64,000 nucleotides of DNA from Candidatus Omnitrophota bacterium (GTDB taxonomy: Bacteria; Omnitrophota; Omnitrophia; Omnitrophales; Aquincolibacteriaceae), in NCBI GenBank assembly GCA_016930235.1, contig JAFGHI010000015.1, forward strand, positions 4,218 to 68,217, read 5' to 3'. Shown here in pieces: positions 28,308-46,090 of the stretch. The position numbers and the translations under genes are program-made. Numbering within the stretch: the first letter of the stretch is position 1; each line of letters starts with the position of its first letter. Under the pieces are notes generated by a model. That model worked only from the letters and a program-made list of their open reading frames with translations. It was not told where the DNA came from and did not search any database.

Positions 28308-28317
28308 GAAAGATCCT

Positions 28318-29350: not shown

Positions 29351-29683
29351 TTAGACGGAAATCTGGCTTTTAATCTTCTGGAGCTTAGCTCCTCCAATAC
29401 CGCGAACATTCGCCAAATCTTCAAGCGTCTCGAAAGGACCATTGTCCTTACGGAACTGGACAATCCGCTCAGCAAGAGCGGGCCCAATCCCTCGAATGGC
29501 TTGAAGCTCTTCAAGACCGGCTTTATTGATGTTCACAGGACCGGAAACAGCCGCCTGCCCCTGTGCTACGGGGCGTTGGGCTGCCTCTAGGGGATTCAAT
29601 CCCATCATAGAAAAGCTCCCGAAAATCAGAGTGACAAGCAGGGTTAACTGCAAAACTCTCATCTTCGAACGCATAACTGCCAT
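29351..29683 (-). CDS. comEA: ComEA-like competence protein (helix-hairpin-helix DNA binding, secreted)
   Basis: Signal peptide then INKAGLEELQAIRGIGPALAERIV...LANVRGIGGAKLQKIK (tandem HhH). Start placed at MAVMRSKMRVL. Confidence 0.8.
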   Translation of the reverse strand: MAVMRSKMRVLQLTLLVTLIFGSFSMMGLNPLEAAQRPVAQGQAAVSGPVNINKAGLEELQAIRGIGPALAERIVQFRKDNGPFETLEDLANVRGIGGAKLQKIKSQISV

Positions 29684-29815
29684 GACTTTCACCTCCTCTA
29701 ACGAAACATTCAAAAGCAGGTGGAGTATAGGGCAAATATGATTATTCGTCAAGTATTATTTATATTATATTAATATACTGAATTCCCTTACTTTTTGTCT
29801 AATCTCATATTTTTA

Positions 29816-29843
29816 TTGACAATTCTTACTTAAGGGGTAATAT
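29816..29843 (+). promoter_or_regulatory. Candidate sigma-70 promoter for the XRE/cupin regulator in an AT-rich divergent region
   Basis: TTGACA-16 nt-TAATAT, about 28 nt upstream of the ATG at 29871. Confidence 0.4.
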
Positions 29844-29870
29844 CCACTTATCCGCTAGGAGCAAGCCAAA

Positions 29871-30428
29871 ATGCTAAAAAACCTCGGACAACGCATCCGA
29901 AGCTTACGCAAAGAAAAAGGATTAACTCTCGTCGAAGTAGCAGAGAAAACGGGAGTCGCACAAGCCACCCTTTCGCGAATCGAAACCGGAACCATGATGG
30001 GGACGGTCGAAAGCCATGAAAAAATATCCGAGGTTCTGGGAATTGGCTTAGCCGAACTTTACACCGGTGTTGACCGGAGGCACGAACAGATCACCCATCT
30101 GACCCAGGAAGCGGATAAGAAAGTCACCTTCCATAACAAGAACGTCCAAATCGAACTTCTCACAACGGGAAGTTCCAAAAAGAAAATTACCCCCCTTCTG
30201 ATGACCCTGCAAGCCGGGAGTGAAACTCCAACCGATCATCTTGAACGCGGGGTCGAAAAGTTTATCTACGTACTGGAAGGCGAAATTCATGTCAAACTCG
30301 AAAAAGAAATTTATCCGCTCAAGACAGGCGAAACACTCTACTTTGATGCTTCCCTCGCCCATCAATGCATCAACGACAAGCAAAAGACAGCGCGAGCTTT
30401 GATCACTGTTTCTCCTTCTAAAATTTAG
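29871..30428 (+). CDS. XRE-family transcriptional regulator with C-terminal cupin domain
   Basis: N-terminal HTH LRKEKGLTLVEVAEKTGVAQATLSRIE. C-terminal cupin barrel (ETLYFDASLAHQCIN). Confidence 0.85.
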   Translation: MLKNLGQRIRSLRKEKGLTLVEVAEKTGVAQATLSRIETGTMMGTVESHEKISEVLGIGLAELYTGVDRRHEQITHLTQEADKKVTFHNKNVQIELLTTGSSKKKITPLLMTLQAGSETPTDHLERGVEKFIYVLEGEIHVKLEKEIYPLKTGETLYFDASLAHQCINDKQKTARALITVSPSKI

Positions 30429-32803
30429 ATAAGATCCTGGGCCAATAATCCCTTCAAGAAAGATTCGATCCGTAACGGAACCCTTTTGTCAGCTCTGACA
30501 TTTTTATCCAGGGTCAGTGTCACTGCCCCGTAAGTCTTCGTATCGAAGAAGAAGCTCCCGCTCCCTACAGCAATCCTTGAAAGAGATTCATCGCTTTCAG
30601 GTGTTAAGATGACTTTGGGCTGAAAAACATCTATCATCTCTTCAAAGACTTTTTGATCCGACCCCCTGAGAGGCGGCATCACCAAAACGTCGATCCGGTC
30701 CAAAGTTGTGAAATCTCTTTCTCCAAACCGGGGCGCTTCATCCAGGTTTGGAATTACAAGGAACCGCCACCCCTTCACCTCAAGAAGATAAAACATCTGA
30801 TTCCCTTGGAAATGAACAGCCCGAATCTTCTCGTCTTTTTCGAACCGAATAACTTCGCCCGGTCGAATTGTCGCTCGATTGACTTCTCTTTGCATTTCAT
30901 AGGGAAGAACATTCCTAAAAATTGAATCTAGCCCCTCGGGATAGATCAAGTACTGAATGGAAAAATTCCTGAGAATAGTTGCCAGACCCCCCGTATGTTT
31001 CTTCATAAGATCAGTCAGCACGACTCCGGTCAGTGTTTTGATCCCTTTTTCCCGCAGGTAGGGCGCAAGAATCCACTGGCCCTGATCGGAAGGAAACCCC
31101 CGGCCCGCATTCACTAACCAGTGGTTGGAATCTTCAAATTGAAGATGGAGAATCTGATTTTTGCCCGCCGAAAACAAAGTCCCCGAAAAGAGAGGAGCAG
31201 GCCTTGGATAAAAAAAACCAACCAATACACAAAGCCAAAAGCTCCATAAAAATGACAACCCCCACCGGTTTGTTATCATTTTTAGCGGCTTCCGAAAACC
31301 CGGCAAAAAATCTCCTTCTTTCTTTGCTTTGAACCGAAAACCATAACCGGCCACCAACAACCCAAGCCCGAAGTAATAAAGTCCGATCTGAAATGAAGAG
31401 GGGGACGGAAGATAAGCATATCCCCATTCGAGCCCCGCGCATTGGTGAATCCAGAAAAGAACAAATTGGATGCAAGTCGACGAAAATCCGGTTAGAAAAC
31501 TGCCGATCCAAGGAAGAAAACCCAATCCTAAGGACAGAAAAGCACCGAGTAAGGCCAAATGGAAAACGGGGATCGCGATAAAATTGGCGGCCAGGCTGAT
31601 CGGCGAGAAAATATGAAAATAGCAAATAACGACGGGAAAAGTTCCCGCCAGGACAGCCAAGGTGTTCATCACCGCCTCCGACCATCTCCATGTTTCAAAT
31701 TCCCTTCTTAAAAAAAGAATCAGCGAAAAAACCGATAGAAAAGATAAATGAAAGGACCAATGAAAGAGATTTTTGGGGTCGATAAAGACAAGGAAAAAGA
31801 ACGCCATAAAAAAAGTGTTGAGAGAATTGCGTTCGCGTTCAAGCAAAAGGGCAAGGAAACTAAGCCCCCCCATCCATCCCGCTCTCTGGACGGGAATCCC
31901 CCAGCCTGCAATCGCGGCATAAAAAAGAATCACGCCGAGGGACAGGAACGCGGAAAGTTTCTGATCACACCCCAAAGCCATGAGCGCAAGATAAAAACTC
32001 CCCGAAAGCAGGATGATATGCAAACCGCTGATCGCCAAAAGATGTGCCGTTCCTGTCTTAATGAAATCATCCCGTATCTGGGGATCCAATTGCTTTCGAT
32101 CCCCCAGGATTAAGGCCCGAAAAACCGAAGCGTGCTCAGGCGAAAATAATCCGTTGAGTCTTACAGCAATTTTTCGACGTGCCGAATGGAGCAAACGAAG
32201 TGCATTCCATGGATTAGCGCTTGCGATCCTGCGGCTGGAGGAACGGCCGTATGCCTTCAAAACCACCTGGATCCCCCTTTGTTTTAAATAATGTCCGTAA
32301 TCAAAACCGCCGGGATTCGTTACGGGATAGGGATAATCGAGGTGCCCGTAAATCCTTAAACGGTCGGCAAAATCAGGAATTTCTTCGGGTTGAAAAAGAA
32401 ATACCTGAACCCGGCCCGTTACCTTAAAGAATTCTTTTCTCCCGGAGATCTTCCGGACAATATTTTTCGAATCCAGGACAAATGAAACCGTTTTCTTTTT
32501 GCCCTGACTCTTGACTTCCGGGGGAGAAACCACGATCCCTTCCAAGGAAACCCGAGTCAAACCCGCAAAGGATTCAACCGGAGGATCACTGGCCCAAGAA
32601 AACATTTTCCCCCGAACAAACCCAAGCAAACATAAAGAGATCATAAAAATGGGCAGGAAAAATCGCTTCCCGCGGAGAACCCATAAAAAAGGGATAAAAG
32701 ACAAACTCATCAAAAAGAGCCACCACATCGAAACATGGACGAACTCGCACAAAAAGACCCCCGTCACAAAACCAAGCGAGATCCAAAAAAAAGGAACCCT
32801 CAT
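30425..32803 (-). CDS. comEC: DNA internalisation competence protein ComEC/Rec2 with C-terminal metallo-beta-lactamase domain
   Basis: Competence-domain signature TGTAHLLAISGLHIILLSG, many transmembrane segments, C-terminal beta-lactamase-like region. Its stop overlaps the start of the XRE gene. Confidence 0.85.
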   Translation of the reverse strand: MRVPFFWISLGFVTGVFLCEFVHVSMWWLFLMSLSFIPFLWVLRGKRFFLPIFMISLCLLGFVRGKMFSWASDPPVESFAGLTRVSLEGIVVSPPEVKSQGKKKTVSFVLDSKNIVRKISGRKEFFKVTGRVQVFLFQPEEIPDFADRLRIYGHLDYPYPVTNPGGFDYGHYLKQRGIQVVLKAYGRSSSRRIASANPWNALRLLHSARRKIAVRLNGLFSPEHASVFRALILGDRKQLDPQIRDDFIKTGTAHLLAISGLHIILLSGSFYLALMALGCDQKLSAFLSLGVILFYAAIAGWGIPVQRAGWMGGLSFLALLLERERNSLNTFFMAFFFLVFIDPKNLFHWSFHLSFLSVFSLILFLRREFETWRWSEAVMNTLAVLAGTFPVVICYFHIFSPISLAANFIAIPVFHLALLGAFLSLGLGFLPWIGSFLTGFSSTCIQFVLFWIHQCAGLEWGYAYLPSPSSFQIGLYYFGLGLLVAGYGFRFKAKKEGDFLPGFRKPLKMITNRWGLSFLWSFWLCVLVGFFYPRPAPLFSGTLFSAGKNQILHLQFEDSNHWLVNAGRGFPSDQGQWILAPYLREKGIKTLTGVVLTDLMKKHTGGLATILRNFSIQYLIYPEGLDSIFRNVLPYEMQREVNRATIRPGEVIRFEKDEKIRAVHFQGNQMFYLLEVKGWRFLVIPNLDEAPRFGERDFTTLDRIDVLVMPPLRGSDQKVFEEMIDVFQPKVILTPESDESLSRIAVGSGSFFFDTKTYGAVTLTLDKNVRADKRVPLRIESFLKGLLAQDLI

Positions 32804-32995
32804 CCCTTACACCGAGCCCTTTCGGAGGCTCTCTTCTTGACGCTCCTGGACTTGGACATGAACATCGTGCCACTTGACGTCTTGGGCAAGCAGGCCCAGG
32901 AAATACCGCATCAGGCTGTAAATAACGAGAGTGACTAGAGCAAAAAAAAGAAGAGTGTGTTGATACTGTTTAAGTCTGGACATAGTTGACTATGG

Positions 32996-33032
32996 TTGAT
33001 ATATATGCATATTATTATTGCATATATATCAA
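32996..33032. repeat. Perfect AT-rich inverted repeat TTGATATATATGCA-N9-TGCATATATATCAA upstream of comEC
   Basis: Read directly: 14-nt arms that are exact reverse complements, separated by TATTATTAT. Flanked by a second small palindrome CATAGTTGACTATG and a TGATTATCA motif. Confidence 0.7.
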
Positions 33033-33096
33033 TGATTATCAACCTTCCGTATGCCCATCGGCCGCGCAGGCCAAATTCCGACCAGCCGGCCGGAAT

Positions 33097-33312
33097 TCAA
33101 CGTTGAGCGTAACTGCTTAAACAGGAAGGACATAGGCAATCGGAATATTGCTCTGCCAGGCGAGTTAAGACCTCTTTCGATAAGGAGGATTGAGAACACC
33201 AACAGGGCATTGGGCTCTCATCTTGGCAAGAAAATTCACCAAGACACCTGGGACACTTCTTTTTTTTACCCATTCCGGTTTCCCCAGGCCGATCTTTTAT
33301 AATCTCTTCCAC
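33097..33312 (-). CDS. Small cysteine-rich protein (CWC-type, 8 Cys)
   Basis: 71 aa with CPRC...C..ESPMPCWC...C.CPSC spacing. Overlaps the end of the ABC ATPase gene by 16 nt, as the last gene of the uptake operon. Confidence 0.45.
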   Translation of the reverse strand: MEEIIKDRPGETGMGKKKKCPRCLGEFSCQDESPMPCWCSQSSLSKEVLTRLAEQYSDCLCPSCLSSYAQR

Positions 33313-34073
33313 GGGATCACGTAAAATTCCTGATCAAAGTGTCCGTAGCGGGCATTGATGCCGTAGCCTTCTTTCAAGTTGTCCGGAGACAAAACATCGG
33401 CAGCGGACCCGGAAGCCAGGATTTTGCCTTCCCGCAAAAGATAAAGCCGGTCGCAAAAACGGGCGGCCAGGGTCAAATCATGCAGCACCACCATCACCCC
33501 GGACCCTCGAAACGCAACGTCCTTCAACAATTGCATGACTTGGATCTGATGATTGGGGTCCAATCCCGCGACGGGTTCATCGGCCAAGATCATTTCTGAA
33601 TTCCCCGCCAAAACACGGGCAAACATTACGAGGGCTTTTTCGCCCCCTGCCAAATGATCCATCGGGCGGTCCGCCAAATGCAACACATCCGATTTTTTCA
33701 TCGCATTGTAAATGGCCTCGTAATCAATTTTCCGAAGGTCCTGCCAGGGCAAAAGATGCGGAATTCTTCCCAGGGCCACGACCCTTTGGGCCGTTAACGA
33801 CCAGGAAACAGACGCCCCTTGCGGGAGATAGGAAAAATATTGGGCAAGCCGGCGTCTATGGATTTCCGACAAAGACTGTCCTTTAACTTCAATCCTCCCT
33901 TTCTGAAAAGGAAGAAACCGAAGAAGCGTCCGCATCAAGGTCGATTTCCCCGCTCCGTTGGGGCCGATCAGGCCGATCAACTCTCCCCGGGGAAGATCCA
34001 TATTCACCTTGCTTAGGACAAGTTTCTTGTCGAGCGAAACATCCAAATCCCGAATCTGAACAAAATCTTTCAT
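33297..34073 (-). CDS. ABC transporter ATP-binding protein (BtuD/FecE-like, iron-complex/cobalamin uptake type)
   Basis: Walker A GPNGAGKST, signature LAGGEKALVMFARVL, Walker B ILADEP. 258 aa. Confidence 0.85.
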   Translation of the reverse strand: MKDFVQIRDLDVSLDKKLVLSKVNMDLPRGELIGLIGPNGAGKSTLMRTLLRFLPFQKGRIEVKGQSLSEIHRRRLAQYFSYLPQGASVSWSLTAQRVVALGRIPHLLPWQDLRKIDYEAIYNAMKKSDVLHLADRPMDHLAGGEKALVMFARVLAGNSEMILADEPVAGLDPNHQIQVMQLLKDVAFRGSGVMVVLHDLTLAARFCDRLYLLREGKILASGSAADVLSPDNLKEGYGINARYGHFDQEFYVIPWKRL

Positions 34074-35089
34074 CAGGATACGTTCCTCCGCATTTTAAAG
34101 ATAAGGGCCAGGAAAAATGGGGCCCCGATTAAGGACGTCAGGACCCCGAGCTTTAATTCCGTGCCGACCGAAAAATATCTGACGAACAAATCCGCCCAAA
34201 GAACAAGGACCGCGCCGCCCACTGCACTTATTCCCAGCAGTTTCCCGGGCTCATGTTTGACAAGGGGCCTGAACAAATGAGGAACCATCAACCCGACAAA
34301 CACCACACTCCCGCAAACAGCCGTCACGCCTCCGACAGCCAGGGCCGTCCCTAAAATAATCCGGAACCGGACCCGCTGAATGGGAATCCCTAAACTCATG
34401 GCCGCTTCTTCCCCGAGACTCAAGGCATTCAGTGCACGGCCGTCCCACAAAAGAAGTAAACATCCCAACAAAACAAAGGGAGCAACTAAAGTTAGATGAT
34501 CAAAACTGCGGTCGGTCAAAGACCCCATCTGCCAGAAAACAATTTCAAGCGCCGCATAAGGATCTTTGGAAAGATTGAGCACCAGAGACGTTCCGGCAAA
34601 GGCCAGGGTATTGATTGCGATACCCGCCAGGATAAGTGTCTGGACACTGGCCATGTACCCGGCAAAAAGATAAAGAATCAAAACCGTAAGAAAAGCACCC
34701 GCCATTCCCCCCAGCGGCAACGCCAGCGAAAAGGAAGAAGCCAACCCCGAGTAAATTACGAGGACGGCCCCCAAAACAGCCCCTCCATTCACCCCCAAAA
34801 CACCGGGCTCGGCCAGAGGATTACGTAATAATCCCTGCATCGACGCCCCTGCAAGCCCTAACGACGCCCCCAGGAAAACGGCCAATAAACTCCGGGGCAT
34901 CCGAATATCCCAAAGAATGACCACCGCCTCGGAACTTTTTCCGTGAACAATGTCGAGTGCCGTGTCCCAGAGAGAAATCTCCGAAGCCCCGGCATTGAGG
35001 GAAATCAAAAAACTCAGAAGCAAGAGAATACTCATTGAGAAAAAGAGAAAAAAGCCGGAGAATTTTGATCCAACCGCAGGTTGCTTCAT
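34073..35089 (-). CDS. FecCD-family ABC permease (BtuC-like)
   Basis: 338 aa, about 9-10 TM helices, glycine-rich. Layout typical of BtuC/FepD permeases. Stop/start overlap with the ATPase gene. Confidence 0.8.
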   Translation of the reverse strand: MKQPAVGSKFSGFFLFFSMSILLLLSFLISLNAGASEISLWDTALDIVHGKSSEAVVILWDIRMPRSLLAVFLGASLGLAGASMQGLLRNPLAEPGVLGVNGGAVLGAVLVIYSGLASSFSLALPLGGMAGAFLTVLILYLFAGYMASVQTLILAGIAINTLAFAGTSLVLNLSKDPYAALEIVFWQMGSLTDRSFDHLTLVAPFVLLGCLLLLWDGRALNALSLGEEAAMSLGIPIQRVRFRIILGTALAVGGVTAVCGSVVFVGLMVPHLFRPLVKHEPGKLLGISAVGGAVLVLWADLFVRYFSVGTELKLGVLTSLIGAPFFLALIFKMRRNVS

Positions 35090-35106
35090 GTCTTATCCCT
35101 CAACCG

Positions 35107-35976
35107 TTACCTTGAAATTCCCGATAATGCCCCTGAAATCTTTTCGACCGCCTCGACCGACCTTGGAGATCCGCAATTGAGCAAGCAGGCCGGAAGCTCA
35201 ATCACTTTAACTCCCGGCAAAGCTTTACGGATCGCCGGATGATTGAGGATATCACGTCTCTCGGTCCGCGTGTGGCGCCAAACATCCGACAAAATAATGA
35301 GGTCTGGTTGTTGGACAATCAAGGTTTCCACAGACATCAATTGATGCCCCTTGGCCCCCGTCCGGACGGCAATATTCTCCGCACCCGCCTCCGTCAAAAT
35401 CGAATGCTCAAAGGTATCTTTTCCCGGAACGCTCCCGCGGATCCCCCAGAAAACAGCCGACCGGCCGCTCTGTGGCCGAGCAATATGTCCCAGCCGTTCA
35501 TTGATTTCACGGATGATTTCCTCGCCCCGTTCTTTTTCCTGAAGGACCTCGGCCATTTGCCGGATCATGTCCCGAATCTCATCGAAATTCTTGGGGATAG
35601 GGACCGACACGACCCGAACGCCTAATTTCTCCAGAAACTGAATGGTCTGCCGCCGCGTGAAAGGCCCGGCAAAAACCAAATCGGGTTTCAAAACCATGAT
35701 CTCCTCGGCATCACCGCGAATCATCGGGATCCCTTTGACCTCGTCCGTGATGGGAGAAAAGACCTGGTCCTTTGAATAACGTGTAATCGCCACGATCCGT
35801 TCCCGATCGGCAAGCCGGATGAGGAGTTCATCGGAACAAAAATTCGCAGAAATAATCCGGGACGGTTTCAGTACCGTTTCTTCTTGGGAGGCAATCTCAA
35901 GAGACTGCGCCGAGACAATGTCCCTTCCCGAGAGAGCAAACAAAACCAGGAAGAAAAAAAACCAAACCCTTAGCAT
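35107..35976 (-). CDS. Periplasmic substrate-binding protein of the uptake system (BtuF-like)
   Basis: Signal peptide MLRVWFFFFLVLFALSGRDIVSA, then a class III SBP-like layout. Start set at MLRV. The ORF-track extension overlaps the receptor gene. Confidence 0.65.
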   Translation of the reverse strand: MLRVWFFFFLVLFALSGRDIVSAQSLEIASQEETVLKPSRIISANFCSDELLIRLADRERIVAITRYSKDQVFSPITDEVKGIPMIRGDAEEIMVLKPDLVFAGPFTRRQTIQFLEKLGVRVVSVPIPKNFDEIRDMIRQMAEVLQEKERGEEIIREINERLGHIARPQSGRSAVFWGIRGSVPGKDTFEHSILTEAGAENIAVRTGAKGHQLMSVETLIVQQPDLIILSDVWRHTRTERRDILNHPAIRKALPGVKVIELPACLLNCGSPRSVEAVEKISGALSGISR

Positions 35977-36002
35977 ACCAACCGCCTCCGGCTTTGAAAC
36001 AG

Positions 36003-38273
36003 TTAAAATTCCCAGCGTACCCCACATTGGTATTCCCGCGGAGCTCCGGGCACAACAAAGGTATACGTTCCATCGGGAAGGACCGTCGCACCGCCCCAAG
36101 CCGCTGGGAAGACTGTCGCATCCACAGCACGGGAATAATACTTGTTATTAAAAACGTTGTTCACCTTAAAATAAACCTCGAAATTTCTCCAGGAATAGGA
36201 AACGAGAAAATCCCAAACCGAATAGGCCTTGATTTGATGGCCCGCCCCGCCGGTCGCATCCAAGGTTGCCTGAGCGGTCGACTCATAAGCCAGCACGTGT
36301 TGGTCCCCGGTATAAATCCCATTGAGGGACAATTTTAAACCGTCATAAGGTTCTCCCAAACGGACCAAGGGATAAAGCGTCGTTCCCCAGGTAAAACGGT
36401 GTTCCGGGATTTGCCCCAAGTCCCGGCCGTCGATGAGACTCCCTCCCTGGTCGGTTTCCCGCACGTAAGCATCCGTGAGCGTATAAGACCCGTAAAGTGA
36501 AATCTCGTCGACTGGCTTGACGTCCAATCGCGTCTCAATCCCCGAACGCCTGCTTTTTCCGATATTAATATTCTGTCCGAAAGGCGCATTGACCGTCACC
36601 GAAGTAGAGTCCCAAACAATCTCATCCTTTAAATCAATCAGAAAGAAACTGCATTTGAAAAGCCCCATCTCTTTCGGTAAACGAATCCGGGTACCGACTT
36701 CGTAACTATCCGAGACCTCGGGACGAAGACTTGTCGAAATAGTCCCGGAGAAAGGAGACAATTCACTGATCGTCGGCACACGAAACCCCTGGCTGTAATT
36801 GCCGTAAAGATCCGTCCAAGAAAGGGGTTTGATAATCAGACCGGTTGACCAACTCGCTTCATCCCACCGGCGGCTGATATTCTGGGTCGGCATCATGGCA
36901 TCCGAGGCATTCAAGCGATATTGGTCGAGCCTCATCCCAACATGCGCGGTCACCCGTTGGGCGATCTCTCCGGTCTGGCGCCAGTAGAGTGCCCAGTTTC
37001 TCGGGTCCGAGCTCCTGTCGGTTTCGCGCGGACTGTTTTCAACGACATTTCCTCCGAAGGCATCCTGTTCCAATCCGTAATTGGAGGCGTTACGAAACTC
37101 CATCCCCAGGGTTGTTTGGTTGTGATACCAGCCCCACTCGTCCTCATAAGCAAGCTGCCAGACAAGATCGGTCGCCCTTGATTTTGTCGTCACCAGATCC
37201 GTATCGGGATTAAAAGCACCGTCGGCGAACGTAAGCGATGTCGTGTAAAAGTGAGCGAGATTGACCCGCCAGGAAGCCAAGATCGAGGCCAAAACACGGT
37301 GGTCCCAAAAATATTTATTGGCCTCCATTTGAAGGATTGTCATCCGGTAATCCCGGCCATCCAAGGGCTTTAAGGTCATTTCTTCATTGATCTGATACAA
37401 ATCGTAAGGCAGCGCCCCCGGATTGGAAACCGCATCATCCACGTGCTTCAACCCGAACCGAAAGTTCCCCTGGTCGTCGGGAAGTTCATAAGCGGTCTTG
37501 ATATTAAAGGAAGTAATCCGGTATTCCCCATTACTGCGGAAACCGTCCCCTAATTTACGGCTGCTGTTGAAATAGTAGGTCCACTTTCCCGCCAAGGGCG
37601 TTATTTTATCCTGAAGCGTCCCGCTAAATCCGTTATAGAATTGAATGCCCCGGTTGCTTGAGAATTCAAAACCTCCGAAAAGGCTCAGACGCTTTTCACT
37701 CGGCCGGCGCGTCGTCAAATGGACCACTCCGGCAAAGGCACCGCTCCCAAAAATAGGCGAAGCCGAACCGCGGTCAATTTGGATCGATTCAAGATCGCTC
37801 ATATCGATCAAGGGATAAATCACATCATCCCCGTCCACTTCATTGATACGGACCCCGTCCAAAAGATGGACGACCGCGCTCCCTTCCGAAAAACCCCGGA
37901 GACTGAACGTGCGGTCGACCCCGTTTCCGACCTGGTCATAAAAAAGGGCGCCCTCCACATCCTCGATGGACCCTTGATAATCACGCGGATGATAGGCATG
38001 AACTTCTTCGCCTTCGCGGCGCGTGACATTGGCGGGAATGTAACTTATATTGGCAGGAACATCGGCAAATGGGACTTTGAAACAAGGAAGCCGTGAAGCC
38101 ACCACCGTCACCTGATCATAGGTTAACACCCGTGATTCATCGGTCTTCAACTCGTCTGTAACTTCTGGAGTTTCTGTTGGGTTCGGTGAAGGAACCTCAG
38201 CAAAAACCGGGTACGACACACTCAAAAAAACCAAAAGCAAAAACTTACTGACTTGAAGCAACATCCTTTCCAT
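36003..38273 (-). CDS. TonB-dependent outer-membrane receptor (BtuB-like)
   Basis: Signal peptide MERMLLQVSKFLLLVFLSVSYPVFA with AAAGGAGG RBS. Plug domain, 22-strand barrel. C-terminal ...GVRWEF aromatic terminus. Preceded by cobalamin-riboswitch-like leader. Confidence 0.85.
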   Translation of the reverse strand: MERMLLQVSKFLLLVFLSVSYPVFAEVPSPNPTETPEVTDELKTDESRVLTYDQVTVVASRLPCFKVPFADVPANISYIPANVTRREGEEVHAYHPRDYQGSIEDVEGALFYDQVGNGVDRTFSLRGFSEGSAVVHLLDGVRINEVDGDDVIYPLIDMSDLESIQIDRGSASPIFGSGAFAGVVHLTTRRPSEKRLSLFGGFEFSSNRGIQFYNGFSGTLQDKITPLAGKWTYYFNSSRKLGDGFRSNGEYRITSFNIKTAYELPDDQGNFRFGLKHVDDAVSNPGALPYDLYQINEEMTLKPLDGRDYRMTILQMEANKYFWDHRVLASILASWRVNLAHFYTTSLTFADGAFNPDTDLVTTKSRATDLVWQLAYEDEWGWYHNQTTLGMEFRNASNYGLEQDAFGGNVVENSPRETDRSSDPRNWALYWRQTGEIAQRVTAHVGMRLDQYRLNASDAMMPTQNISRRWDEASWSTGLIIKPLSWTDLYGNYSQGFRVPTISELSPFSGTISTSLRPEVSDSYEVGTRIRLPKEMGLFKCSFFLIDLKDEIVWDSTSVTVNAPFGQNINIGKSRRSGIETRLDVKPVDEISLYGSYTLTDAYVRETDQGGSLIDGRDLGQIPEHRFTWGTTLYPLVRLGEPYDGLKLSLNGIYTGDQHVLAYESTAQATLDATGGAGHQIKAYSVWDFLVSYSWRNFEVYFKVNNVFNNKYYSRAVDATVFPAAWGGATVLPDGTYTFVVPGAPREYQCGVRWEF

Positions 38274-38494
38274 CTCTCCTCCTTTACCCGCGTAAAGAGA
38301 CCCTAGGGGTTCTAGGATCTGTTTCCTTGAAAAGAGCGAGATCTTCTGGCTTGTGGCAACAGTCGCAATCACCTACTTGCAGCACCTTCCCAACAAAATA
38401 AGTTAAAAGTAAAAAGTCAAAAATTAAAACTATCGAAAATCATTTTCTTAACCCGTAACTCGCTTTTGACTTTTGATTTATTACTTCTAACTTT

Positions 38495-38575
38495 TAAGTC
38501 AGTGGTCTTCGGCTGCTTTCGTTCCACGTACAGCTGCGGGGCAGCGGCGGCTCATCCGCCTTCCCTCCACTCTCA
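38495..38575 (-). promoter_or_regulatory. Second, compact cobalamin-riboswitch-like aptamer (copy 2) in the receptor leader
   Basis: Minus RNA GAGUGGAGGGAAGGCGGAUGAGCCGCCGCUGCCCCGCAGCUGUACGUGGAACGAAAGCAGCCGAAGACCACUGAC. Contains AGGGAAG, GCUGCCCCGCAGCUGUA (core GCC-CCCGC-ACUGU), a B12-box-like AGCCGAAGACC and CCACUG. Shares the CCGCCGCUG...ACGAAAGC...ACCACUG backbone with copy 1. Confidence 0.45.
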
Positions 38576-38595
38576 AGTTTTGATTGTGAACGAAC

Positions 38596-38646
38596 AAAAA
38601 AAATCCCTTTGAGCAAGTTCCGAGGAGAATACGCTGCTCAAAGGGA
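38596..38646 (-). terminator. Intrinsic terminator (probable riboswitch expression platform)
   Basis: Minus RNA UCCCUUUGAGCA-19 nt loop-UGCUCAAAGGGA (12-bp stem) followed by UUUUUUUU. About 55 nt downstream of the B12 box of copy 1. Confidence 0.7.
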
Positions 38647-38699
38647 AAACACTTCCTAAGCTTTTTTCAATCCTCTGCTCGGAGGCTCAATCTTTCATG

Positions 38700-38900
38700 T
38701 TGATGAGGGTAGGTCTTCTGACTGACGAGCGTTCGTATCCTACTTACGAACCTTCCCACCCGCCAAAACTGAGGCAGGCAGTGGTTAATTTCGCTTTCGT
38801 TCTCGTCGACAGCGGCGGCACCGTGGAGTCAATTGCACACAGCAATTGCTCGCTTCCCTATGAAGTTCGAAATCCCTTTCGAACACCCACACCGTTTAAG
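38700..38900 (-). promoter_or_regulatory. Cobalamin (B12) riboswitch-like aptamer (copy 1)
   Basis: Minus RNA contains, in canonical order: AUAGGGAAGCGAGC, GGUGCCGCCGCUGUCGA, ACCACUGCC, GGUGGGAAGG, and the B12 box AGUCAGAAGACCUACC (consensus AGYCMGGAGACCKGCC, 2 mismatches). No ORF on either strand. Confidence 0.6.
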
Positions 38901-38923
38901 AAAGAACATTCAATAGTGGAGTC

Positions 38924-38951
38924 ATTATAGAAAAAAGAGGGGGCTTGTAAA
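38924..38951 (-). promoter_or_regulatory. Candidate sigma-70 promoter of the riboswitch-regulated uptake operon
   Basis: Minus strand TTTACA-16 nt-TATAAT immediately upstream of the riboswitch region. Confidence 0.45.
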
Positions 38952-38983
38952 GATGATTTTTGAAGAAAAGGAAAACAAGACAA

Positions 38984-39559
38984 TTACATGCTGAGGATAA
39001 TTTCTTCGCCGGACTGCTCAAGGATGACCGAACGTCCCTGAATATCTTTGACTACCGTATCTTGGTTCACCTCATCCCCGATCATGTAAATACGGTTATT
39101 GATGAGCGCCAGTTGCCTGCCCGCGGAAGTCGTAATCCCGCTCAAAACATATTTGCTCGTCCGCGGCCTAACAACGACGGGCTCAAATGATTCTCTTAGG
39201 ACGGGCTGTTTGGGAGCGGTCACGGCCGGCTTGGGGGCCCGCTGGAAGTTTTCCATCATGACCGTCGTTGCAATCACCATCGCCCCGAGCACCATCACAC
39301 TGACCAGCACAATGCAACAAACAACAACGGCCTTCATGAGATTTTTTTTCGTCCGGGAATCCAGAACCGGAGCACGATAAGGGCGATGCGTTTCTCTAAT
39401 CTCCTTGTGGAAATCAAACGGCGGCTTGGGTTCAGGTTTCGGCACAACCCGCTTCGGTAGTTCTTTCTGTTTCGGCGGCGGCTCCATCACGGAAGTGGCC
39501 GCACTCAAATCCTGAGGCAACCGTCCCGTCTTTTCAAGCGCCTGCTGGATGAGACTCAT
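38984..39559 (-). CDS. GspB/ExeB-like protein (partner of ExeA-type ATPase). Proline-rich linker, single TM, C-terminal T2SSB-like domain.
   Basis: 191 aa. PKPEPKPP linker, TM VVVCCIVLVSVMVLGAMVIA, C-terminus LSGITTSAGRQLALINNRIYMIGDEVNQDTVVKDIQGRSVILEQSGEEIIL. Its start overlaps the ExeA-like stop by 4 nt. Confidence 0.5.
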   Translation of the reverse strand: MSLIQQALEKTGRLPQDLSAATSVMEPPPKQKELPKRVVPKPEPKPPFDFHKEIRETHRPYRAPVLDSRTKKNLMKAVVVCCIVLVSVMVLGAMVIATTVMMENFQRAPKPAVTAPKQPVLRESFEPVVVRPRTSKYVLSGITTSAGRQLALINNRIYMIGDEVNQDTVVKDIQGRSVILEQSGEEIILSM

Positions 39560-40365
39560 ACATGAACTCCTTCAAGATCGGCTTGGGCACATTCCACCAT
39601 CTGCTGCGTCACCACCGTTGAATTTTGAGTGAATGCCGCCATCAGGGCACGATCGGCCAAGACATTGATCACACGCGGGATTCCGGAGGACAAATGATAA
39701 ATAAGCTCACCCGCTTCTTCGGAAAAAAAGTTTCGTTCCGCACCCGCAACCGTAAGCCGGTGAGCAATATAATTTCTGACATCCTCCCGTGAAAGCTCAG
39801 GCAAATGATAGCGGATCGTGATCCTCTGGCGAAGCTGTTTTAAACAAGGACGGTTTAAAAGATCTTTGAGTTCGGGCTGGCCCACTAAAATAATTTGAAG
39901 CAATTTATGAATCGGCGTCTCGAGATTGGATAAAAGACGGACCTGCTCCAGGGCCTTCGGGCTCAAAAGCTGGCATTCGTCAATAATCGCCACCGCATTA
40001 AACCCCTTCTGCGACTCTTCAATCAGAAAATTGTTGAGGGCATCAAAATAATGCTTTCGTTTCTTCCCCGGAGGCGTGATGCCAAAATCCTCGACAATGG
40101 CCTGCAAGACCTCAAACTCCGAAAGCCTGGGATTGAAAAGCAAGGAGGTATGCGCCTTGCCTTCCAACTTATTGAGGAGTGTCCGGCAAATCGTTGTCTT
40201 CCCGGCCCCGATCTCCCCTGTAATCTGAATAAATCCCCTGCGGCTCTCGACCCCGTAAAGAAGATTGGACAGGGCCTCCAAGTGATGCCGGCTAAAATAG
40301 ACAAACCGTGGGTCCGGCGTCATGTTGAAGGGAGATTCTCTCAATCCAAAGAAATTCTCGTACAT
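39556..40365 (-). CDS. ExeA/GspA/MshM-like AAA ATPase (short form, no peptidoglycan-binding domain)
   Basis: Walker A GEIGAGKTT, Walker B AIIDECQ. N-terminal FGLRESPFNMTPDPRFVYFSRHHLEAL is characteristic of ExeA-family ATPases. Confidence 0.75.
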   Translation of the reverse strand: MYENFFGLRESPFNMTPDPRFVYFSRHHLEALSNLLYGVESRRGFIQITGEIGAGKTTICRTLLNKLEGKAHTSLLFNPRLSEFEVLQAIVEDFGITPPGKKRKHYFDALNNFLIEESQKGFNAVAIIDECQLLSPKALEQVRLLSNLETPIHKLLQIILVGQPELKDLLNRPCLKQLRQRITIRYHLPELSREDVRNYIAHRLTVAGAERNFFSEEAGELIYHLSSGIPRVINVLADRALMAAFTQNSTVVTQQMVECAQADLEGVHV

Positions 40366-40453
40366 AATCTCAACCTTTTTCTTATTTCGAAATGGTGCTG
40401 ATAGGCTTACTCAAAGTAACGGCAAATCCGGGAAACTCTGAAGCGCTCCGGCG

Positions 40454-42493
40454 TCAAGCCCGAGCGAACTGGAAGACCTTGCCGTCTTTTCGGGGAATCT
40501 CAAAGACAAACGGTTTTCCCTTTTCCCACAAAATCTTCTCGGCCTTCCCCGCGAGGATATCTTCAATCTTAACGTTGGATACCGATTGCTCCAGTCCCGG
40601 CAAATAAACACTCGCGCTCTTATCTTCGTCCCCGTTATTCACCGCCACCAGATAGGAAAACTTGCCCCGTTCGAACCAAGCCGTCTTGATATCACGAGTA
40701 ACACTCCGGGAAGGCCGCAAAACACCCAGAAAACTCAGAACCTCCTCAATCAAAGAAGGCGTTGGGTCCACACCTAAATGAAGGAGATATCCCTTCCCGA
40801 TTTTCTTCTTATAGCCGATTGTCTTTCGTCCGTAGCTTCCCAAATCCGCTTGAACGGGATTTCCTGAAACGTTACGGAAACAATAAACCGAACTGATGAT
40901 CTCCACACCGCTTCTTTTTTTGCTCAGGCACACCTTGAATTTTCTTTTGAATTCGAAAAGAACACTCTGCGGCTCTTCGAATCCGACGATCGAACGCGGG
41001 ATAAAGCACTCATCCTTGCGGGGGTAATCGCGGAAAGCCACCAGGACACCGCCTCTTTCAACGTAACGGCGAAGGTTTTCCTGAGCCTTCGGTGCGAGCC
41101 ATTGATTGCCCGAATAAAAAAGGCATTTTTTGTCCGGAAGACCTTTCCTGGGGTCCAAAAGTTCATAATCGACGTCCGCATCATAAAGGGCCGTCAAAAC
41201 CGGACTGTCGTGCGAAAGGGTCCTTGCCGCGTATTGAAGCGGATTCAACGTCACGCCGATATCGCAAACTTTCTTGAGCTCCGGTAAATACATTTTCTCG
41301 GCCACCTTCACCATTTGCCCGAAAGCCTCGTAAAGTTCCGGCCGCACCCTTCCCCATTCATTGATCGGAGACATGTACCAGTTGTCCCGGTTCACCAGCA
41401 TATACCAATTCCAGCCCGCCACGCCGCCCAGGATCGCACTCAAACCCAGCAGGCGGTAATGATTCGGCGTCAAAACCCCGCTTTCGTAATGCCGCGAATG
41501 CCAGATACCGGATTCGAATTCCGCAATAAAAGGGAGCCGGGAAGTATTTTTCAGGAATCGCACCTTGTCGATAAATTTCCTCTGCTCAAACTTATCTTCG
41601 CCGAATTCATTGGAGGGATAAAGGTCCACACCGACAAGGTCCGAGACTTCCTGCATATCCGACCAATCGTGCGCATAAAAGAAGGGATAAACGTTCAGAT
41701 AGATCGGAATATCCACGCCCAGCTTCCGGTAAGCCTGGACATTCCACTCGGCACATTGGCGCGAATAACTATATTTGAACCTAAAATAATCCAGATGCCG
41801 CTGCAGCTCGTGATCGCCCTTGAGCTGAAAACCTTCGGACCGGTTGAGCATCGTCGCAAGAAATGCGCCCGCCTCTTCAAATCTTTTGTAATGAGTCCCC
41901 CACCGTTCGTTGAGATCCTTAATCCGACCGGCATAAAGTTTCTTTAAAAATCCCTGAAATAGCCCCGGCTTGCCGGCCAACCCGTATTGAGCACCGAAGA
42001 CATCCGGCCACGGATCGATTTCGTTATCCGCTTGAAGGAGCAGGATATGGCCGCGGCTCCTCGTGGCAAAATAAGGGCTCAAAACCTTGACGACTTTTTT
42101 TAAATAATTGCCGGCAAACTTCAGAAACTGAGGATGCAAACGGTGATAACGATACGCATAAGCGGGAACCCCTTCGCGCGGCCATTCACTGTAGATATAA
42201 GGCCCGGGCCGGATCACGACCCAAAATCCCATCCGCCGGGTCAAATCAAGAAATGCGACAAGATTTCTTTTAGGATCCGTTTGGCCCGTGAAATCAAATT
42301 GTCCCCGGCGGGGCTCATGATAATCCCAGGGGATGTAAGTCGAAACGATCTTGAGTCCGAGTCCTTTAACTTGCGTGAGGATTTCTTCCCAGGCATCCGG
42401 ATGAAGCCTCCAGTAATGCACCTCTCCGGAAAGAAGCGGGATCTTTTTTGGGCCTACGACGATTTGATTGTTCCTGATTTCAACTTTGGGCAT
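40454..42493 (-). CDS. Glycoside hydrolase family 35-like beta-galactosidase
   Basis: N-terminal LLSGEVHYWRLHPDAWEEILTQVKGLGLKIVSTYIPWDYHEPRRGQFDF resembles the GH35 TIM-barrel start. Start set at MPKVEI, which abuts the leuS stop. Confidence 0.65.
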   Translation of the reverse strand: MPKVEIRNNQIVVGPKKIPLLSGEVHYWRLHPDAWEEILTQVKGLGLKIVSTYIPWDYHEPRRGQFDFTGQTDPKRNLVAFLDLTRRMGFWVVIRPGPYIYSEWPREGVPAYAYRYHRLHPQFLKFAGNYLKKVVKVLSPYFATRSRGHILLLQADNEIDPWPDVFGAQYGLAGKPGLFQGFLKKLYAGRIKDLNERWGTHYKRFEEAGAFLATMLNRSEGFQLKGDHELQRHLDYFRFKYSYSRQCAEWNVQAYRKLGVDIPIYLNVYPFFYAHDWSDMQEVSDLVGVDLYPSNEFGEDKFEQRKFIDKVRFLKNTSRLPFIAEFESGIWHSRHYESGVLTPNHYRLLGLSAILGGVAGWNWYMLVNRDNWYMSPINEWGRVRPELYEAFGQMVKVAEKMYLPELKKVCDIGVTLNPLQYAARTLSHDSPVLTALYDADVDYELLDPRKGLPDKKCLFYSGNQWLAPKAQENLRRYVERGGVLVAFRDYPRKDECFIPRSIVGFEEPQSVLFEFKRKFKVCLSKKRSGVEIISSVYCFRNVSGNPVQADLGSYGRKTIGYKKKIGKGYLLHLGVDPTPSLIEEVLSFLGVLRPSRSVTRDIKTAWFERGKFSYLVAVNNGDEDKSASVYLPGLEQSVSNVKIEDILAGKAEKILWEKGKPFVFEIPRKDGKVFQFARA

Positions 42494-44979
42494 TATTGGG
42501 CCACAATATTGACAATCCGTCCGGGGACGACGATGACTTGTTTGATCTCCTTGCCTTCCAGCCACTGTTTGACTTGTTCATCTTGGAAAACCTTTTCCCG
42601 GATGTTGTCTTCCTTTTCCTCTTTCGAAACGGAGATCTTGGCGCGTACCTTGCCGCCGATGAGGACCGCCATTTCGACGGTTTCCTCAACCAAATAAGAA
42701 GGATCGTATTCCGGCCAAGCTTCATAAGCAAGTGTCCCGGAATGTCCTAAACGCTTCCATAACTCTTCGGTCAGGTGAGGCGCAAAGGGCGCCAGGAGCA
42801 AAACAAATTTTTCCATCACTTCACGGGAACATGTTTCTTCTTTGAGCATCACGTTGACAAAAATCATCAGGGCCGAGATCGCCGTGTTCAATCGAATGCC
42901 TTCGATATCTTCGGTCACCTTTTTGACCGTCTGGTGAATCAACTTTTGTTCGGCCGCGTTCGGCTTCCTATTCTGAACCTTGGAATGAAGAGTCCCTTCC
43001 GAGATAAAGAGCCGCCACGTCCGGCCGAGGAACCGGTAAACGCCTTCGACCCCCTGCATCGACCACGGCTTGGTCATTTCAAGCGGTCCCATAAACATCT
43101 CATACAAGCGGATACTGTCGGCCCCGTAGCGTTCGATGAGTTCGTCGGGATTGAGAATGTTCCCGCGCGACTTGGACATCTTTTGATTGTCCTCCCCGAG
43201 GATCATCCCCTGATTGACTAATCGTTTAAAAGGCTCGACTTCCGAAACCACCCCGCAATCGTAAAGAACTTTATGCCAGAATCTCGCGTAAAGAAGATGC
43301 AGCACCGCGTGTTCGGCCCCTCCGACATATAAATCCACCGGCATCCAGTATTTCTCTTTCTTTTCTGCAACCGCTGCCTTCGGATTCTTAGGATCGATAA
43401 ACCGCAGGTAATACCAGCAAGACCCCGCCCATTGAGGCATCGTATTCGTTTCCCGTTTCGCAGGCCTTCCGGTCTTCGGGTCTTGGGTGTTCACCCATTC
43501 CTTCATCAAAGCAAGCGGACTTTCACCCGTCCCCGTCGGTTTGTAGCTTCTCGACTCCGGCAGCCGGATCGGGAGTTCCTTTTCATCCACCAGGCAAGGT
43601 TTCTCATCCACGTGAATAACAGGGATCGGTTCCCCCCAGTATCTTTGACGGCTGAAGAGCCAGTCCCTCAATTTATATTGGATTGACTTCTTTCCGATCC
43701 CTTTTTTCTTCAGCCAATCCGTAATTTTTGGGATTGCCTGGTCGCTCGGCATCTCATCGATTGAAAAAGATTTGTCCGGCGTCGTTGAATTCTTGCAAAG
43801 ACCGACACCGACGAAAGCGCGTTCCTTATTGTCTTCCGGAACACCAGGTTCCTGGATCACCCAAACAATCGGAAGTTTAAACTTCGTCGCAAATTCAAAA
43901 TCGCGCTCGTCGTGCGCCGGGACAGCCATAATGGCCCCGGTCCCGTAACTGATCAGCACATAATCGGCAATCCAGATCGGGATCTCTTTTTGCGTGAGTG
44001 GATTCGTCGCATACGCGCCCGTAAAAACACCCGTTTTTTCCTTGGCAAGATCCGTCCGGTCTAAATCAGATTTTAAAGAGGCTTGCCGGACATAAGCCTC
44101 CACTTCTTTTTTCTTATCAGGAGTCACAATCTTTTTAACGAGAGGATGTTCCGGGGCAAGCACCATATAAGTCGCTCCGAACAAAGTGTCGGGACGGGTC
44201 GTGAATACCCGGATGACATCGTCGGACACCGCAACCGGGAAATCAACTTCCGCGCCGACGGATTTCCCGATCCAGTTTCTCTGCATCTCCTTGATCGGTT
44301 CCGGCCAATCAAGAAGATTCAGATCTTCCAGCAGCCTTTCGGCATAGGCAGTAATCTTAAGAACCCATTGACGCATAGGCTTACGAACTACCGGATGTCC
44401 TCCCCGTTCACTTTTCCCGTTAATCACTTCTTCATTCGCCAAAACGGTCCCAAGTGCCGGACACCAGTTAACAGGGACCTCCGCCTCGTAAGCCAGCCCT
44501 TTCTCAAAAAGCTTCATAAAAATCCACTGGGTCCACCGGTAATAGCCGGGGTCCGTCGTGTTGATTTCCCTCTGCCAGTCGTAACTGAATCCGATACGTT
44601 TAATCTGCCTTTTGAAATTCTGGATATTTTTCTCGGTCGTCTCGCGCGGGTGGGTCCCGGTATCCAGGGCGTGTTGTTCGGCCGGCAACCCGAAGGCGTC
44701 CCAGCCCATCGGATGCAGGACATTGAACCCACGCATCCTTTTGTAACGGGAAATAATATCGGTGGCGGTATACCCTTCCAGATGGCCTACGTGCAGTCCG
44801 GACCCCGAAGGGTACGGGAACATATCCAGGATATAATACTTGGGTTTCTCGCTCCCCTTTTCGCCCGGATCGGGTGAACGGAAAGTGCCGTGCTTTTCCC
44901 AATATTCCTGCCAGGAAAGTTCTATCTCATCAAAGGGATATTGTTTGATTCCGCTTGCCATAGGCGGGTATTTTAACAC
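42493..44979 (-). CDS. leuS: Leucine--tRNA ligase
   Basis: 828 aa. [12 protein letters not shown] (HIGH region), KMSKS, CP1 editing domain. Canonical bacterial LeuRS. Confidence 0.95.
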
Positions 44980-45013
44980 AAGCGCAAAAAATCACGAAAC
45001 TTCTTCAGGAAAA

Positions 45014-45097
45014 ACTGCGGAGGGAGAGAGTCGAACTCTCACGGCCTTGCGGCCACTGGATTTTGAGTCCAGCGCGTCTGCCAGTTCCGCCACCCCC
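45014..45097 (-). tRNA. tRNA-Leu (anticodon CAA), class II
   Basis: Reverse complement GCGGGGGTGGCGGAACTGGCAGACGCGCTGGACTCAAAATCCAGTGGCCGCAAGGCCGTGAGAGTTCGACTCTCTCCCTCCGCA. Anticodon stem CTGGA/TCCAG with loop CTCAAAA, long variable arm, T-loop GTTCGACTC. Confidence 0.85.
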
Positions 45098-45124
45098 GCA
45101 AATCACAGGTAAGAATAAAAAAAC

Positions 45125-45197
45125 TTGGACCGGAGGGGAGTTGAACCCCTGACCTCCACAATGCCATTGTGGCGTTCTCCCAACTGAACTACCGGCC
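45125..45197 (-). tRNA. tRNA-Ala (anticodon GGC)
   Basis: Reverse complement GGGCCGGTAGTTCAGTTGGGAGAACGCCACAATGGCATTGTGGAGGTCAGGGGTTCAACTCCCCTCCGGTCCA. G3:U70 identity pair present. Anticodon stem CCACA/TGTGG with loop ATGGCAT. Confidence 0.85.
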
Positions 45198-45395
45198 CAC
45201 GTAAGAAATTATACCAAAGCAAACTTTATACAGGCAGTGTCTACCGTCAAAACCACTTACCAAAACATCGCAGTCCTGCAAAGTTCCTGAGGAACGAAGC
45301 AGGACCGGCCCATGAATGAATTGCAGGGTATCTTAATCAAAAGCGGGTATCGAGACAAGGATTAAGTAATGAAAAACCCTGAAGAATATTCCCAT

Positions 45396-45433
45396 AAGAA
45401 AAAGGGCCAGATCTTTTTGATCTGGCCCTTTTT
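45396..45433. terminator. Bidirectional intrinsic terminator (A-tract, 10-bp stem, T-tract)
   Basis: AAGAAAAAG-GGCCAGATC-TTTTT-GATCTGGCCC-TTTTT. On the minus strand it follows the small secreted-protein gene. It also isolates the tRNA-Ala/Leu unit. Confidence 0.8.
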
Positions 45434-45455
45434 AAAGAAATTCGCCTCGCTTAAT

Positions 45456-45782
45456 TTAGAACAAGGTTTCAGGATCCACTGGCATTCCCTGCTGATGATC
45501 AGGAATAAATGCAGCAATGAAATCCCACATACCACTGCCCGTGCGAACAACTGTTTGGAAGAGTCCGTCAAGGGCACCCGAAATATGGCGGATGACCGGA
45601 CGTCCTGCCCCTTGGTGGTATTCCTGAATCGTGATAGGGACTTCCATCCATCCGCCAATCACATTCTTGAAACCACGCACAAAATCCTTCTGCATGTTAT
45701 CCTGATACTCGCCCGCGAAAGCCGGTGTGACCGAAGCAGCTAAGATCAGGACTAACAATACCGCAAGAATTTTCTTCATATT
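45456..45782 (-). CDS. Small secreted protein of unknown function
   Basis: Start at MKKILAVLLVLILAASVTPAFA (signal peptide) with GGGAGGG RBS. About 108 aa. No catalytic motif. Candidate TTGACA-16-TAGGAT promoter at 45836..45863. Confidence 0.5.
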   Translation of the reverse strand, partial: NMKKILAVLLVLILAASVTPAFAGEYQDNMQKDFVRGFKNVIGGWMEVPITIQEYHQGAGRPVIRHISGALDGLFQTVVRTGSGMWDFIAAFIPDHQQGMPVDPETLF

Positions 45783-46090
45783 GATTCCCTCCCTTGGATT
45801 ATCAATGGTCGAAATAAGAAATACTGACCTCACTATCCTAAGGTTTATCGACCTCTTGTCAAGTTAGTTCAATATTCACGTAATTGGGTGTTTCGGCAAA
45901 ACGCTTAAAAAGTGTAGCCTAAATATTCAATTGTTTCCGGCATCCCCCTCAAAAAAGACTCGCCCTCCGGTCACAATTCCCGGCACGTTCTTCAGAAATT
46001 CCTCTCGGAAAGCTGCGGGGATCCCCTTAAACCGAGTAAAGTTTTGGGTGCCAAGGCCGATGTTCCATATACGGCGAGATTGACCAAATA

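Follow-up and report, generated by a model that had tools for sequence, protein, structure and literature searches.

Tandem adenosylcobalamin (AdoCbl) riboswitches were first reported in 2006 (Sudarsan et al.), and 26 doublets were counted in 2022 by Sherlock et al. (PMC9481103). Riboswitch units are taken to be independent when a terminator lies between them, and the "bi-mechanism" layout, in which a terminator is followed by control of the ribosome-binding site (RBS), is explicit there for S-adenosylmethionine (SAM) classes, the expression platforms of the AdoCbl doublets being left unclassified (PMC9481103). For single cobalamin riboswitches, the criterion is a kissing loop between L5 and L13 with an unpaired nucleotide, which controls the RBS in btuB and env8 (PMC5028336). 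Here we describe a leader of ~640 nt (~38917 to 38274) in a 64,000-nt stretch of DNA, referred to below as the window, from a Candidatus Omnitrophota bacterium (assembly GCA_016930235.1, contig JAFGHI010000015.1, positions 4,218 to 68,217). This leader is a tandem of two complete cobalamin riboswitches, each with its own expression platform, ahead of genes for a TonB-dependent receptor and an ABC importer. We consider it likely that the two act independently and in series on this one operon, the first through a terminator and the second through control of the RBS. All coordinates are window positions, and the leader and operon are read on the minus strand.

The two aptamers were recognized with the Rfam covariance model RF00174, the scan that the original prediction of a cobalamin riboswitch at this site had put forward as its check. 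Aptamer 1 (38905..38691) scores 62.3 bits (E = 5e-13) and aptamer 2 (38602..38319) scores 52.4 bits (E = 3.5e-10), each over the full model, 1-189, and the gathering score is 31.5 bits. In the RF00174 alignments both carry, in canonical order, the core GGGAA, P5 followed by CUGU, CCACUG, GGGAAGG, and the B12 box. The gap between them, from 38691 to 38577, is ~113 nt, thus shorter than 300 nt, and holds no open reading frame (ORF) of at least 80 amino acids. The original prediction had taken the whole ~640 nt as one riboswitch; its first aptamer and terminator are borne out, and the second match, which takes up the ~320 nt from the terminator to the start of the receptor gene, had escaped it.

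A terminator-then-RBS cobalamin tandem is a known but uncommon arrangement, and the interest of the one in the window lies chiefly in its mosaic origin, in its use of two different kissing-loop sequences, and in the phylum of its host. It shares with the AdoCbl-AdoCbl doublets (PMC9481103) a single Rfam family, a single 5′ untranslated region with no ORF between the aptamers, a gap below 300 nt, and a terminator after the first unit. It differs from them in that the second unit is apparently translational, the aptamers are diverged subtypes rather than near-duplicates, and the host belongs to the Omnitrophota, for which our literature searches found no tandem cobalamin riboswitches. The order of a terminator first and an RBS second, with both units acting as OFF switches for presumably the same ligand, is that of the SAM-II/SAM-V and mixed SAM-II doublets (PMC9481103), from which the present case is distinguished by another ligand class and by two aptamers of one family.

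Within unit 1, the conserved cobalamin riboswitch motifs lie exactly where they had been placed before: AUAGGGAAG in the core of aptamer 1 (38861..38853), GGUGCCGCC and then GCUGU (starting at 38822), CCACUGCC (38784..38777), GGUGGGAAGG (38760..38751), and the B12 box AGUCAGAAGACCUACC (38723..38708). One assignment has to be changed, in that the sequence GGUGCC, previously read as the core GGUG motif, is really part of P5/L5. The P1 helix joins 38893..38885 with 38710..38702, with eight of nine pairs formed, and a hairpin at 38848..38830 stands in place of the usual L4 loop. Aptamer 1 is followed by a small P13 hairpin, CCUC-CGAGCA-GAGG (38685..38672), with a predicted stability of -3.4 kcal/mol, and then by an intrinsic terminator (38646..38596). 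The terminator has a perfect 12-bp stem (arms 38646..38635 and 38615..38604), a 19-nt loop, and a run of eight U (38603..38596) that follows without a spacer, with a predicted stability of -21.2 kcal/mol. A custom scan of the 64-kb window for perfect stems (9 bp or longer) that run into six or more T gave only four sites, of which this is the longest, and none in 20 shuffles. The 12-bp hairpin with its U-run, which had been noted at this very position, is not due to chance.

The loop of this terminator contains a candidate antiterminator segment, AUUCUCCUCGGA (38630..38619), that can pair with both P13 strands (38683..38678 and 38675..38670). When the transcript is ended at 38616, before the 3′ arm of the terminator, the minimum-energy fold does pair the P13 strands with the terminator loop, in a duplex of 12 bp with a 2-nt bulge (-14.6 kcal/mol; z = -2.0 against shuffled P13). 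We infer that such an antiterminator helix would be incompatible with P13 and, sterically, with the terminator stem; the exact pairing proposed here is that of a folding model and may differ in detail. Several relatives show clear complementarity of the P13 region to the terminator loop or arm. The mechanism was not derived from minimum-energy folds of the whole leader, in which long-range pairings are at odds with the aptamer architecture.

In unit 2, the B12 box of the aptamer is AGCCAGAAGAUCUCGC (38351..38336), and P1 is formed by 8 bp between CUUGAGAG (38577..38570) and UUUUCAAG (38333..38326). The Rfam alignment had suggested an aptamer without P1, a reading overturned by relatives with the same type of unit (type B, below), since the segment labeled P2 by Rfam is P1. 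A homologous P1 covaries in seven of these relatives: L007 (GCUUGGGA with UCCCGGGC), L009 (GUUUGAGA with UCUCAGAC), L078 and L079 (GCUUAAGG with CCUUGAGC), L080 (GCUUAAGG with UCUUAAGC), L082 (GUUUAAGA with UCUUAAGC), and L010 (ACCUAGAC with GUUUAGGU), the 5′ strand being given first. No formal pair count accompanies this helix because the MAFFT composite alignment mis-registered the window sequence. The expression platform (38299..38271) consists of the P13 hairpin CUCUUUA-CGCGGG-UAAAGGAG (38299..38279; -4.2 to -6.7 kcal/mol) and the AUG of the receptor gene (38273..38271). A Shine-Dalgarno sequence, AAGGAGG (38284..38278), lies in the 3′ arm of this hairpin, 4 nt ahead of the AUG, so that at the sequence level a terminator after the first unit is joined by an RBS within the P13 hairpin of the second. 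A hairpin of this kind beside the start codon is conserved in all type-B relatives.

Unit 2 resembles the riboswitches of Escherichia coli btuB and env8 HyCbl (PMC5028336) in having a hairpin that pairs with L5, leaves one nucleotide unpaired, and occludes the RBS of the receptor gene. The position of the RBS differs, being in L13 itself in env8 and in the 3′ arm of the hairpin in unit 2. Unit 2 is also set apart from btuB and env8 by a J1/13 segment of ~26 nt with an extra hairpin and by an AdoCbl-type aptamer, the P6 extension of which carries a 99-nt insertion. This insertion folds into a long, imperfect, AU-rich hairpin at the tip of P6 (38486..38400; -23.6 kcal/mol), with 24% G+C, the window as a whole having 48%. 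A repeat or mobile element was considered and rejected, as neither the window nor the 129 loci collected for comparison hold a further copy, and no promoter-like site was found inside it. Insertions at the same point in relatives are unrelated to it and range from 0 to 126 nt, so that the insertion looks like ordinary variability.

The element that joins each aptamer to its platform is the kissing loop. In unit 1, L5 (UGCCG, 38820..38816) is complementary to L13 (CGAGCA, 38681..38676), and in unit 2, L5 (CCCCG, 38541..38537) is complementary to L13 (CGCGGG, 38292..38287), in both cases with five of five Watson-Crick pairs and one bulged nucleotide in L13. The same relation, L13 as the reverse complement of L5 plus a bulge, is found for five L5 sequences across lineages (UGCCG, CCCCG, CCCGG, UACCG, and UCCCG). 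On composite alignments, 98-99% of the kissing-loop cells are paired, compared with 38-63% in slid controls, and compensatory changes occur at 2-3 of the five pairs. As some rows of the second composite alignment had been chosen by the L5/L13 rule itself, a search for downstream hairpins provides the cleaner control: 39 of 50 aptamers are followed downstream by a hairpin whose loop is complementary to their own L5, compared with 2.2-2.5% when other, non-cognate pentamers are used, and four of the 11 failures (L078, L079, L080, and L082) fit when a 2-nt bulge is allowed. Non-cognate L5/L13 pairings match at three of five positions, and nearest-neighbor energies separate cognate from non-cognate pairs poorly, so that orthogonality of the two kissing loops is a weak observation. 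It was earlier supposed that a pseudoknot of the B12 box is the regulatory pairing; that role falls instead to the L5-L13 kissing loop. The rule that L13 equals the reverse complement of L5 plus one or two bulged nucleotides is testable and can help to locate cobalamin expression platforms in annotation.

Given the two aptamers, their two hairpins, the complementary and covarying L5/L13 pairs, and the terminator, a mechanism for the leader can be proposed in which ligand binding and dose-response behavior are presumed. In unit 1, which would act on transcription, the bound ligand would let L5 UGCCG kiss L13 CGAGCA and lock P13, whereupon the 12-bp terminator with its eight U would form and RNA polymerase would stop at ~38596. 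Without ligand, the weak P13 would open and its strands would pair with the terminator loop before the 3′ arm of the terminator has been made, and read-through would follow. Unit 2 would act on the translation of read-through mRNA; with ligand bound, L5 CCCCG would kiss L13 CGCGGG and lock the Shine-Dalgarno hairpin, and the locked hairpin would block initiation at the AUG at 38273. Both units would thus be OFF switches, and expression would need both to be free of ligand. Repression at two levels would be expected to be tighter and steeper, as in a "bi-mechanism" or pseudo-cooperative tandem.

Additional insight is gained when the leader is placed among those of orthologous receptors. Scans with a receptor alignment gave the 129 loci, of which ~50 are Omnitrophota orthologues. 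A strict regular expression for the B12 box missed most aptamers and was replaced by Rfam scans and an nhmmer profile of the aptamer core. With the latter, a cobalamin aptamer core was found upstream in ~50 of the ~53 Omnitrophota-type receptor loci fetched, 30 of which also score above the gathering score of RF00174. Each relative carries exactly one riboswitch, and these single riboswitches fall into two types, A (like unit 1) and B (like unit 2). In type A, L4 is replaced by GAG-[hairpin]-GACUCC, L5 is UGCCG, and the small hairpin CCUC-CGAGCA-GAGG follows; the platform is a hairpin with U6-8, homologous to the unit 1 terminator, with a GAAAGGG Shine-Dalgarno sequence in its 3′ arm and the start codon directly after it. 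Type B has a canonical P4/L4, CCCCG in L5, and the hairpin CACUUUA-CG(N1-2)GGG-UAAAGGAG just ahead of the start codon.

Set against these single riboswitches (L001-L044 and L077-L087), unit 1 is of type A, with UGCCG, CCUC-CGAGCA-GAGG, and the hairpin with U-run, and unit 2 is of type B, with CCCCG and CUUUA-CGCGGG-UAAAGGAG-AUG. What comes after the U-run is the start codon in type-A relatives and unit 2 in the window. Since relatives regulate orthologous receptors with either type alone, on the same platform, each unit is a working design on its own. Aptamers like aptamer 1 occur in at least 20 Omnitrophota orthologous leaders. Across type-A aptamers (L001-L044), the canonical L4 loop GGUGNNAANCC is swapped for GAG-[variable hairpin]-GACUCC, and this replacement appears to be an Omnitrophota-wide aptamer variant.

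Besides the window, only L041 (3492..3975) has two riboswitches; this is an independent tandem of cobalamin riboswitches, again a terminator followed by an RBS, in an unrelated, uncultured bacterium and ahead of a distant TonB receptor (29% identity). Its unit a has the P13 hairpin UUCUC-CGUGGG-GAGAA, the L5/L13 pair CCCCG/CGUGGG, and a terminator with U7, and its unit b has the RBS hairpin CUUU-CCAGGG-AAAG with the L5/L13 pair CCCGG/CCAGGG. The L041 tandem, too, uses two different L5/L13 codes.

The leaders of relatives hold further variants. In L011 (3619..3806) and L002 (3747..3839), an RBS hairpin resembling that of type B comes after a type-A-like riboswitch, with no type-B aptamer present, and these two loci may be remnants of earlier tandems. 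L011 has a clear hairpin and U-run terminator and the type-B-like hairpin CUUUACGCAAGAUAAAGGAGG, in which GGG has been lost from the loop; the hairpin of L002 is CUCUUUCGCGGGGCAAAAAGGAG. In 15 of 26 distinct type-A loci, a second L13-like hairpin lies just inside the receptor ORF, ~11-26 nt after the start codon (L004, L008, L012, L014, L016, L019, L021, L022, L023, L027, L029, L031, L044, and L083). Its loop is CGNGC(N)A and its 5-bp stems covary (GGGAA/UUCCC, CGGAA/UUCCG, CGGGA/UCCCG, and CGGAG/CUCCG), and L5 might kiss this loop as a second partner, with translation blocked as a result. The window has no such hairpin, its place being taken by unit 2.

The surroundings of the leader allow the origin of the tandem to be considered. 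The genes upstream of it (GH35, AAA22, and T2SSB-like) also precede the type-A riboswitch in L008 and L086. Downstream, the BtuC-like gene is 62-68% identical to its counterparts in type-A loci and 35-40% identical to those in type-B loci, and residues 56-756 of the receptor have their nearest counterparts in type-A loci. We therefore assign unit 1, together with both flanks, to the lineage of type-A loci. Unit 2, ~320 nt that bring in the start codon now in use, appears to be a type-B unit inserted later, directly after the U-run, and not an assembly artifact, since the flanks and the body of the receptor resemble loci with type A only. A 32-codon ORF with a UUG start (38597..38499) overlaps the last two U of the run and crosses the 5′ half of aptamer 2. 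Its UUG sits where type-A relatives have the receptor start codon, and the ORF is probably left over from that former start site; any translation of it would unfold aptamer 2. In the type-B loci L007, L009, L010, L078, and L079, btuC-like and btuD-like genes lie upstream of the riboswitch, which controls the receptor alone.

Several observations weigh against two independent switches in series. The unit 1 terminator was not listed by a consensus terminator scan, because its unusually long 19-nt loop exceeds the 8-nt limit of that scan. Support for the antiterminator across type-A relatives is modest (mean z = -0.8), and in thermodynamic terms the terminator (-21.2 kcal/mol) outweighs the antiterminator (-14.6 kcal/mol), so that read-through would need kinetic control. 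Ligand binding, termination, and translational control are all deduced from sequence. The tandem is not conserved either: among the ~50 Omnitrophota orthologous leaders, only the window has two aptamer cores, and selection for the pair therefore cannot be shown. This uniqueness also suits the view that only one unit functions and that the other aptamer is a decaying relic of recombination, the leader being effectively a single riboswitch. The candidate for decay would be aptamer 2, with its lower score, its large AU-rich insertion, its many G-U pairs in P1, and a B12 box in which a C has become a U (GAUCU for GACCU) that still pairs in P3 as G-U; L011 and L002, which keep the RBS hairpin without the type-B aptamer, illustrate that such units can decay. 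Both aptamers nevertheless match the full model well above the gathering score, both retain a perfectly complementary L13 in an intact hairpin, and the 12-bp stem and U8 are perfect. The loss of GGG from the loop of L011, where the aptamer is gone, suggests that decay shows quickly, and we regard a single functional unit as unlikely.

Whether the two aptamers are equivalent is a separate matter. The leader may be a mosaic of two subtypes with different L5/L13 "codes" that serves as a two-channel corrinoid sensor rather than as simple redundancy, if orthogonal kissing loops are needed for stacking or if the subtypes discriminate corrinoid forms; we offer this tentatively, rating it low and yet above a single functional unit. 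The stricter proposal, that the aptamers sense corrinoids with different upper or lower ligands and make the leader a two-input NOR gate, draws on the structural difference between the GAG-[hairpin]-GACUCC of type A and the canonical P4/L4 of type B, and on the different L5/L13 sequences. It is more doubtful than either, as both aptamers belong to RF00174 with a P6 extension and an AdoCbl-type architecture, the control of orthologous receptors by either type alone suggests equivalent signals, and cobalamin riboswitches are reported to be broadly corrinoid sensitive (PMC9600662). An assembly chimera of a type-A and a type-B locus might be suspected in a contig from a metagenome-assembled genome, the more so as the receptor sequence is recorded on one contig only and both unit types occur singly in related populations. 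Such a chimera would need two junctions within ~320 nt, with no repeat at the junction, and would have to be squared with the type-A lineage of both flanks and of the receptor body, with the upstream position of btuCD in type-B loci, and with the independent occurrence of the same layout in L041; we hold it to be very improbable. Least probable of all is cooperation of the two aptamers on one expression platform, like that of tandem glycine aptamers: they do share one leader and stand only ~113 nt apart, but between them stands a complete terminator, by which independent units are recognized (PMC9481103), and each has its own cognate L13 hairpin. Independent action in series, by a terminator and then by RBS control, is thus the reading that we retain as likely.

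The leader is preceded by a sigma-70-like promoter, TTTACA-16-TATAAT (38951..38924), with 11 of 12 positions matching, and its transcription would start near 38917. As had been predicted, this promoter is present; it is the top promoter-like site within 20 kb (26001..46000) and the sole one in 38100..39100, with none between the two aptamers. The leader had also been described as free of ORFs, and indeed no ORF of at least 80 amino acids was found in it, the largest on the same strand having 41. An ATG-initiated ORF of 77 amino acids lies antisense to aptamer 1 (38697..38930, plus strand) and is probably spurious. Elsewhere in the window, an Rfam scan gave five tRNA genes (2218..2299, 2806..2876, 21419..21492, 45016..45099, and 45126..45198), and among the relatives, L034 has a cyclic di-GMP-I riboswitch (RF01051, 48.5 bits; 9318..9463) ~3.2 kb beyond the 3′ end of the receptor gene.

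The first gene after the leader encodes a TonB-dependent outer-membrane receptor of 756 amino acids (38273..36003), with a Plug domain (PF07715) and a beta-barrel domain (PF00593); a protein of a Candidatus Omnitrophica metagenome-assembled genome matches it with 100% identity. The receptor gene is followed by genes for a periplasmic binding protein (Peripla_BP_2; 36099..35107, start uncertain), a FecCD-type permease (35089..34073, a family match), and an ABC ATPase (ABC_tran; 34073..33297, a family match), and the same order of receptor, binding protein, permease, and ATPase also follows in type-A relatives. The receptor falls below the BtuB equivalog cutoffs of NCBIfam (57.4 against 599.7 bits for TIGR01779 and 34.8 against 836 for NF007926), and the importer genes likewise stay below those for BtuC (203 against 334, the best NCBIfam match of the permease), BtuF (35 against 234), and BtuD (120 against 281). 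By sequence, the closest solved relatives of the receptor are heme receptors, the colicin I receptor (Cir), and transferrin-binding protein A (TbpA), and those of the binding protein are heme- or iron-binding proteins, ahead of BtuF. The protein is thus a TonB-dependent receptor, but these comparisons do not show it to be an orthologue of BtuB.

The substrate cannot be told from the proteins, which on their own would be assigned to the uptake of iron, heme, or siderophores. The riboswitches are the best evidence for corrinoid uptake, and the earlier argument that a riboswitch marks this system as one for corrinoids gains from both results, the Btu scores below cutoff and the aptamer core upstream of nearly all the receptor loci. 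A terminator-type cobalamin riboswitch ahead of a TonB receptor and an ABC importer, as first proposed, is supported by the covariance match, the terminator statistics, and the gene content. The operon therefore most likely encodes a receptor and ABC importer for corrinoids.

The Omnitrophota are an uncultivated phylum with very small, possibly host-dependent cells. The leader described here provides a clean natural example of an AdoCbl-AdoCbl tandem in which a terminator is followed by RBS control. With cobalamin riboswitches near-universal ahead of orthologous receptors, this receptor family is the likely route of corrinoid scavenging in the Omnitrophota.

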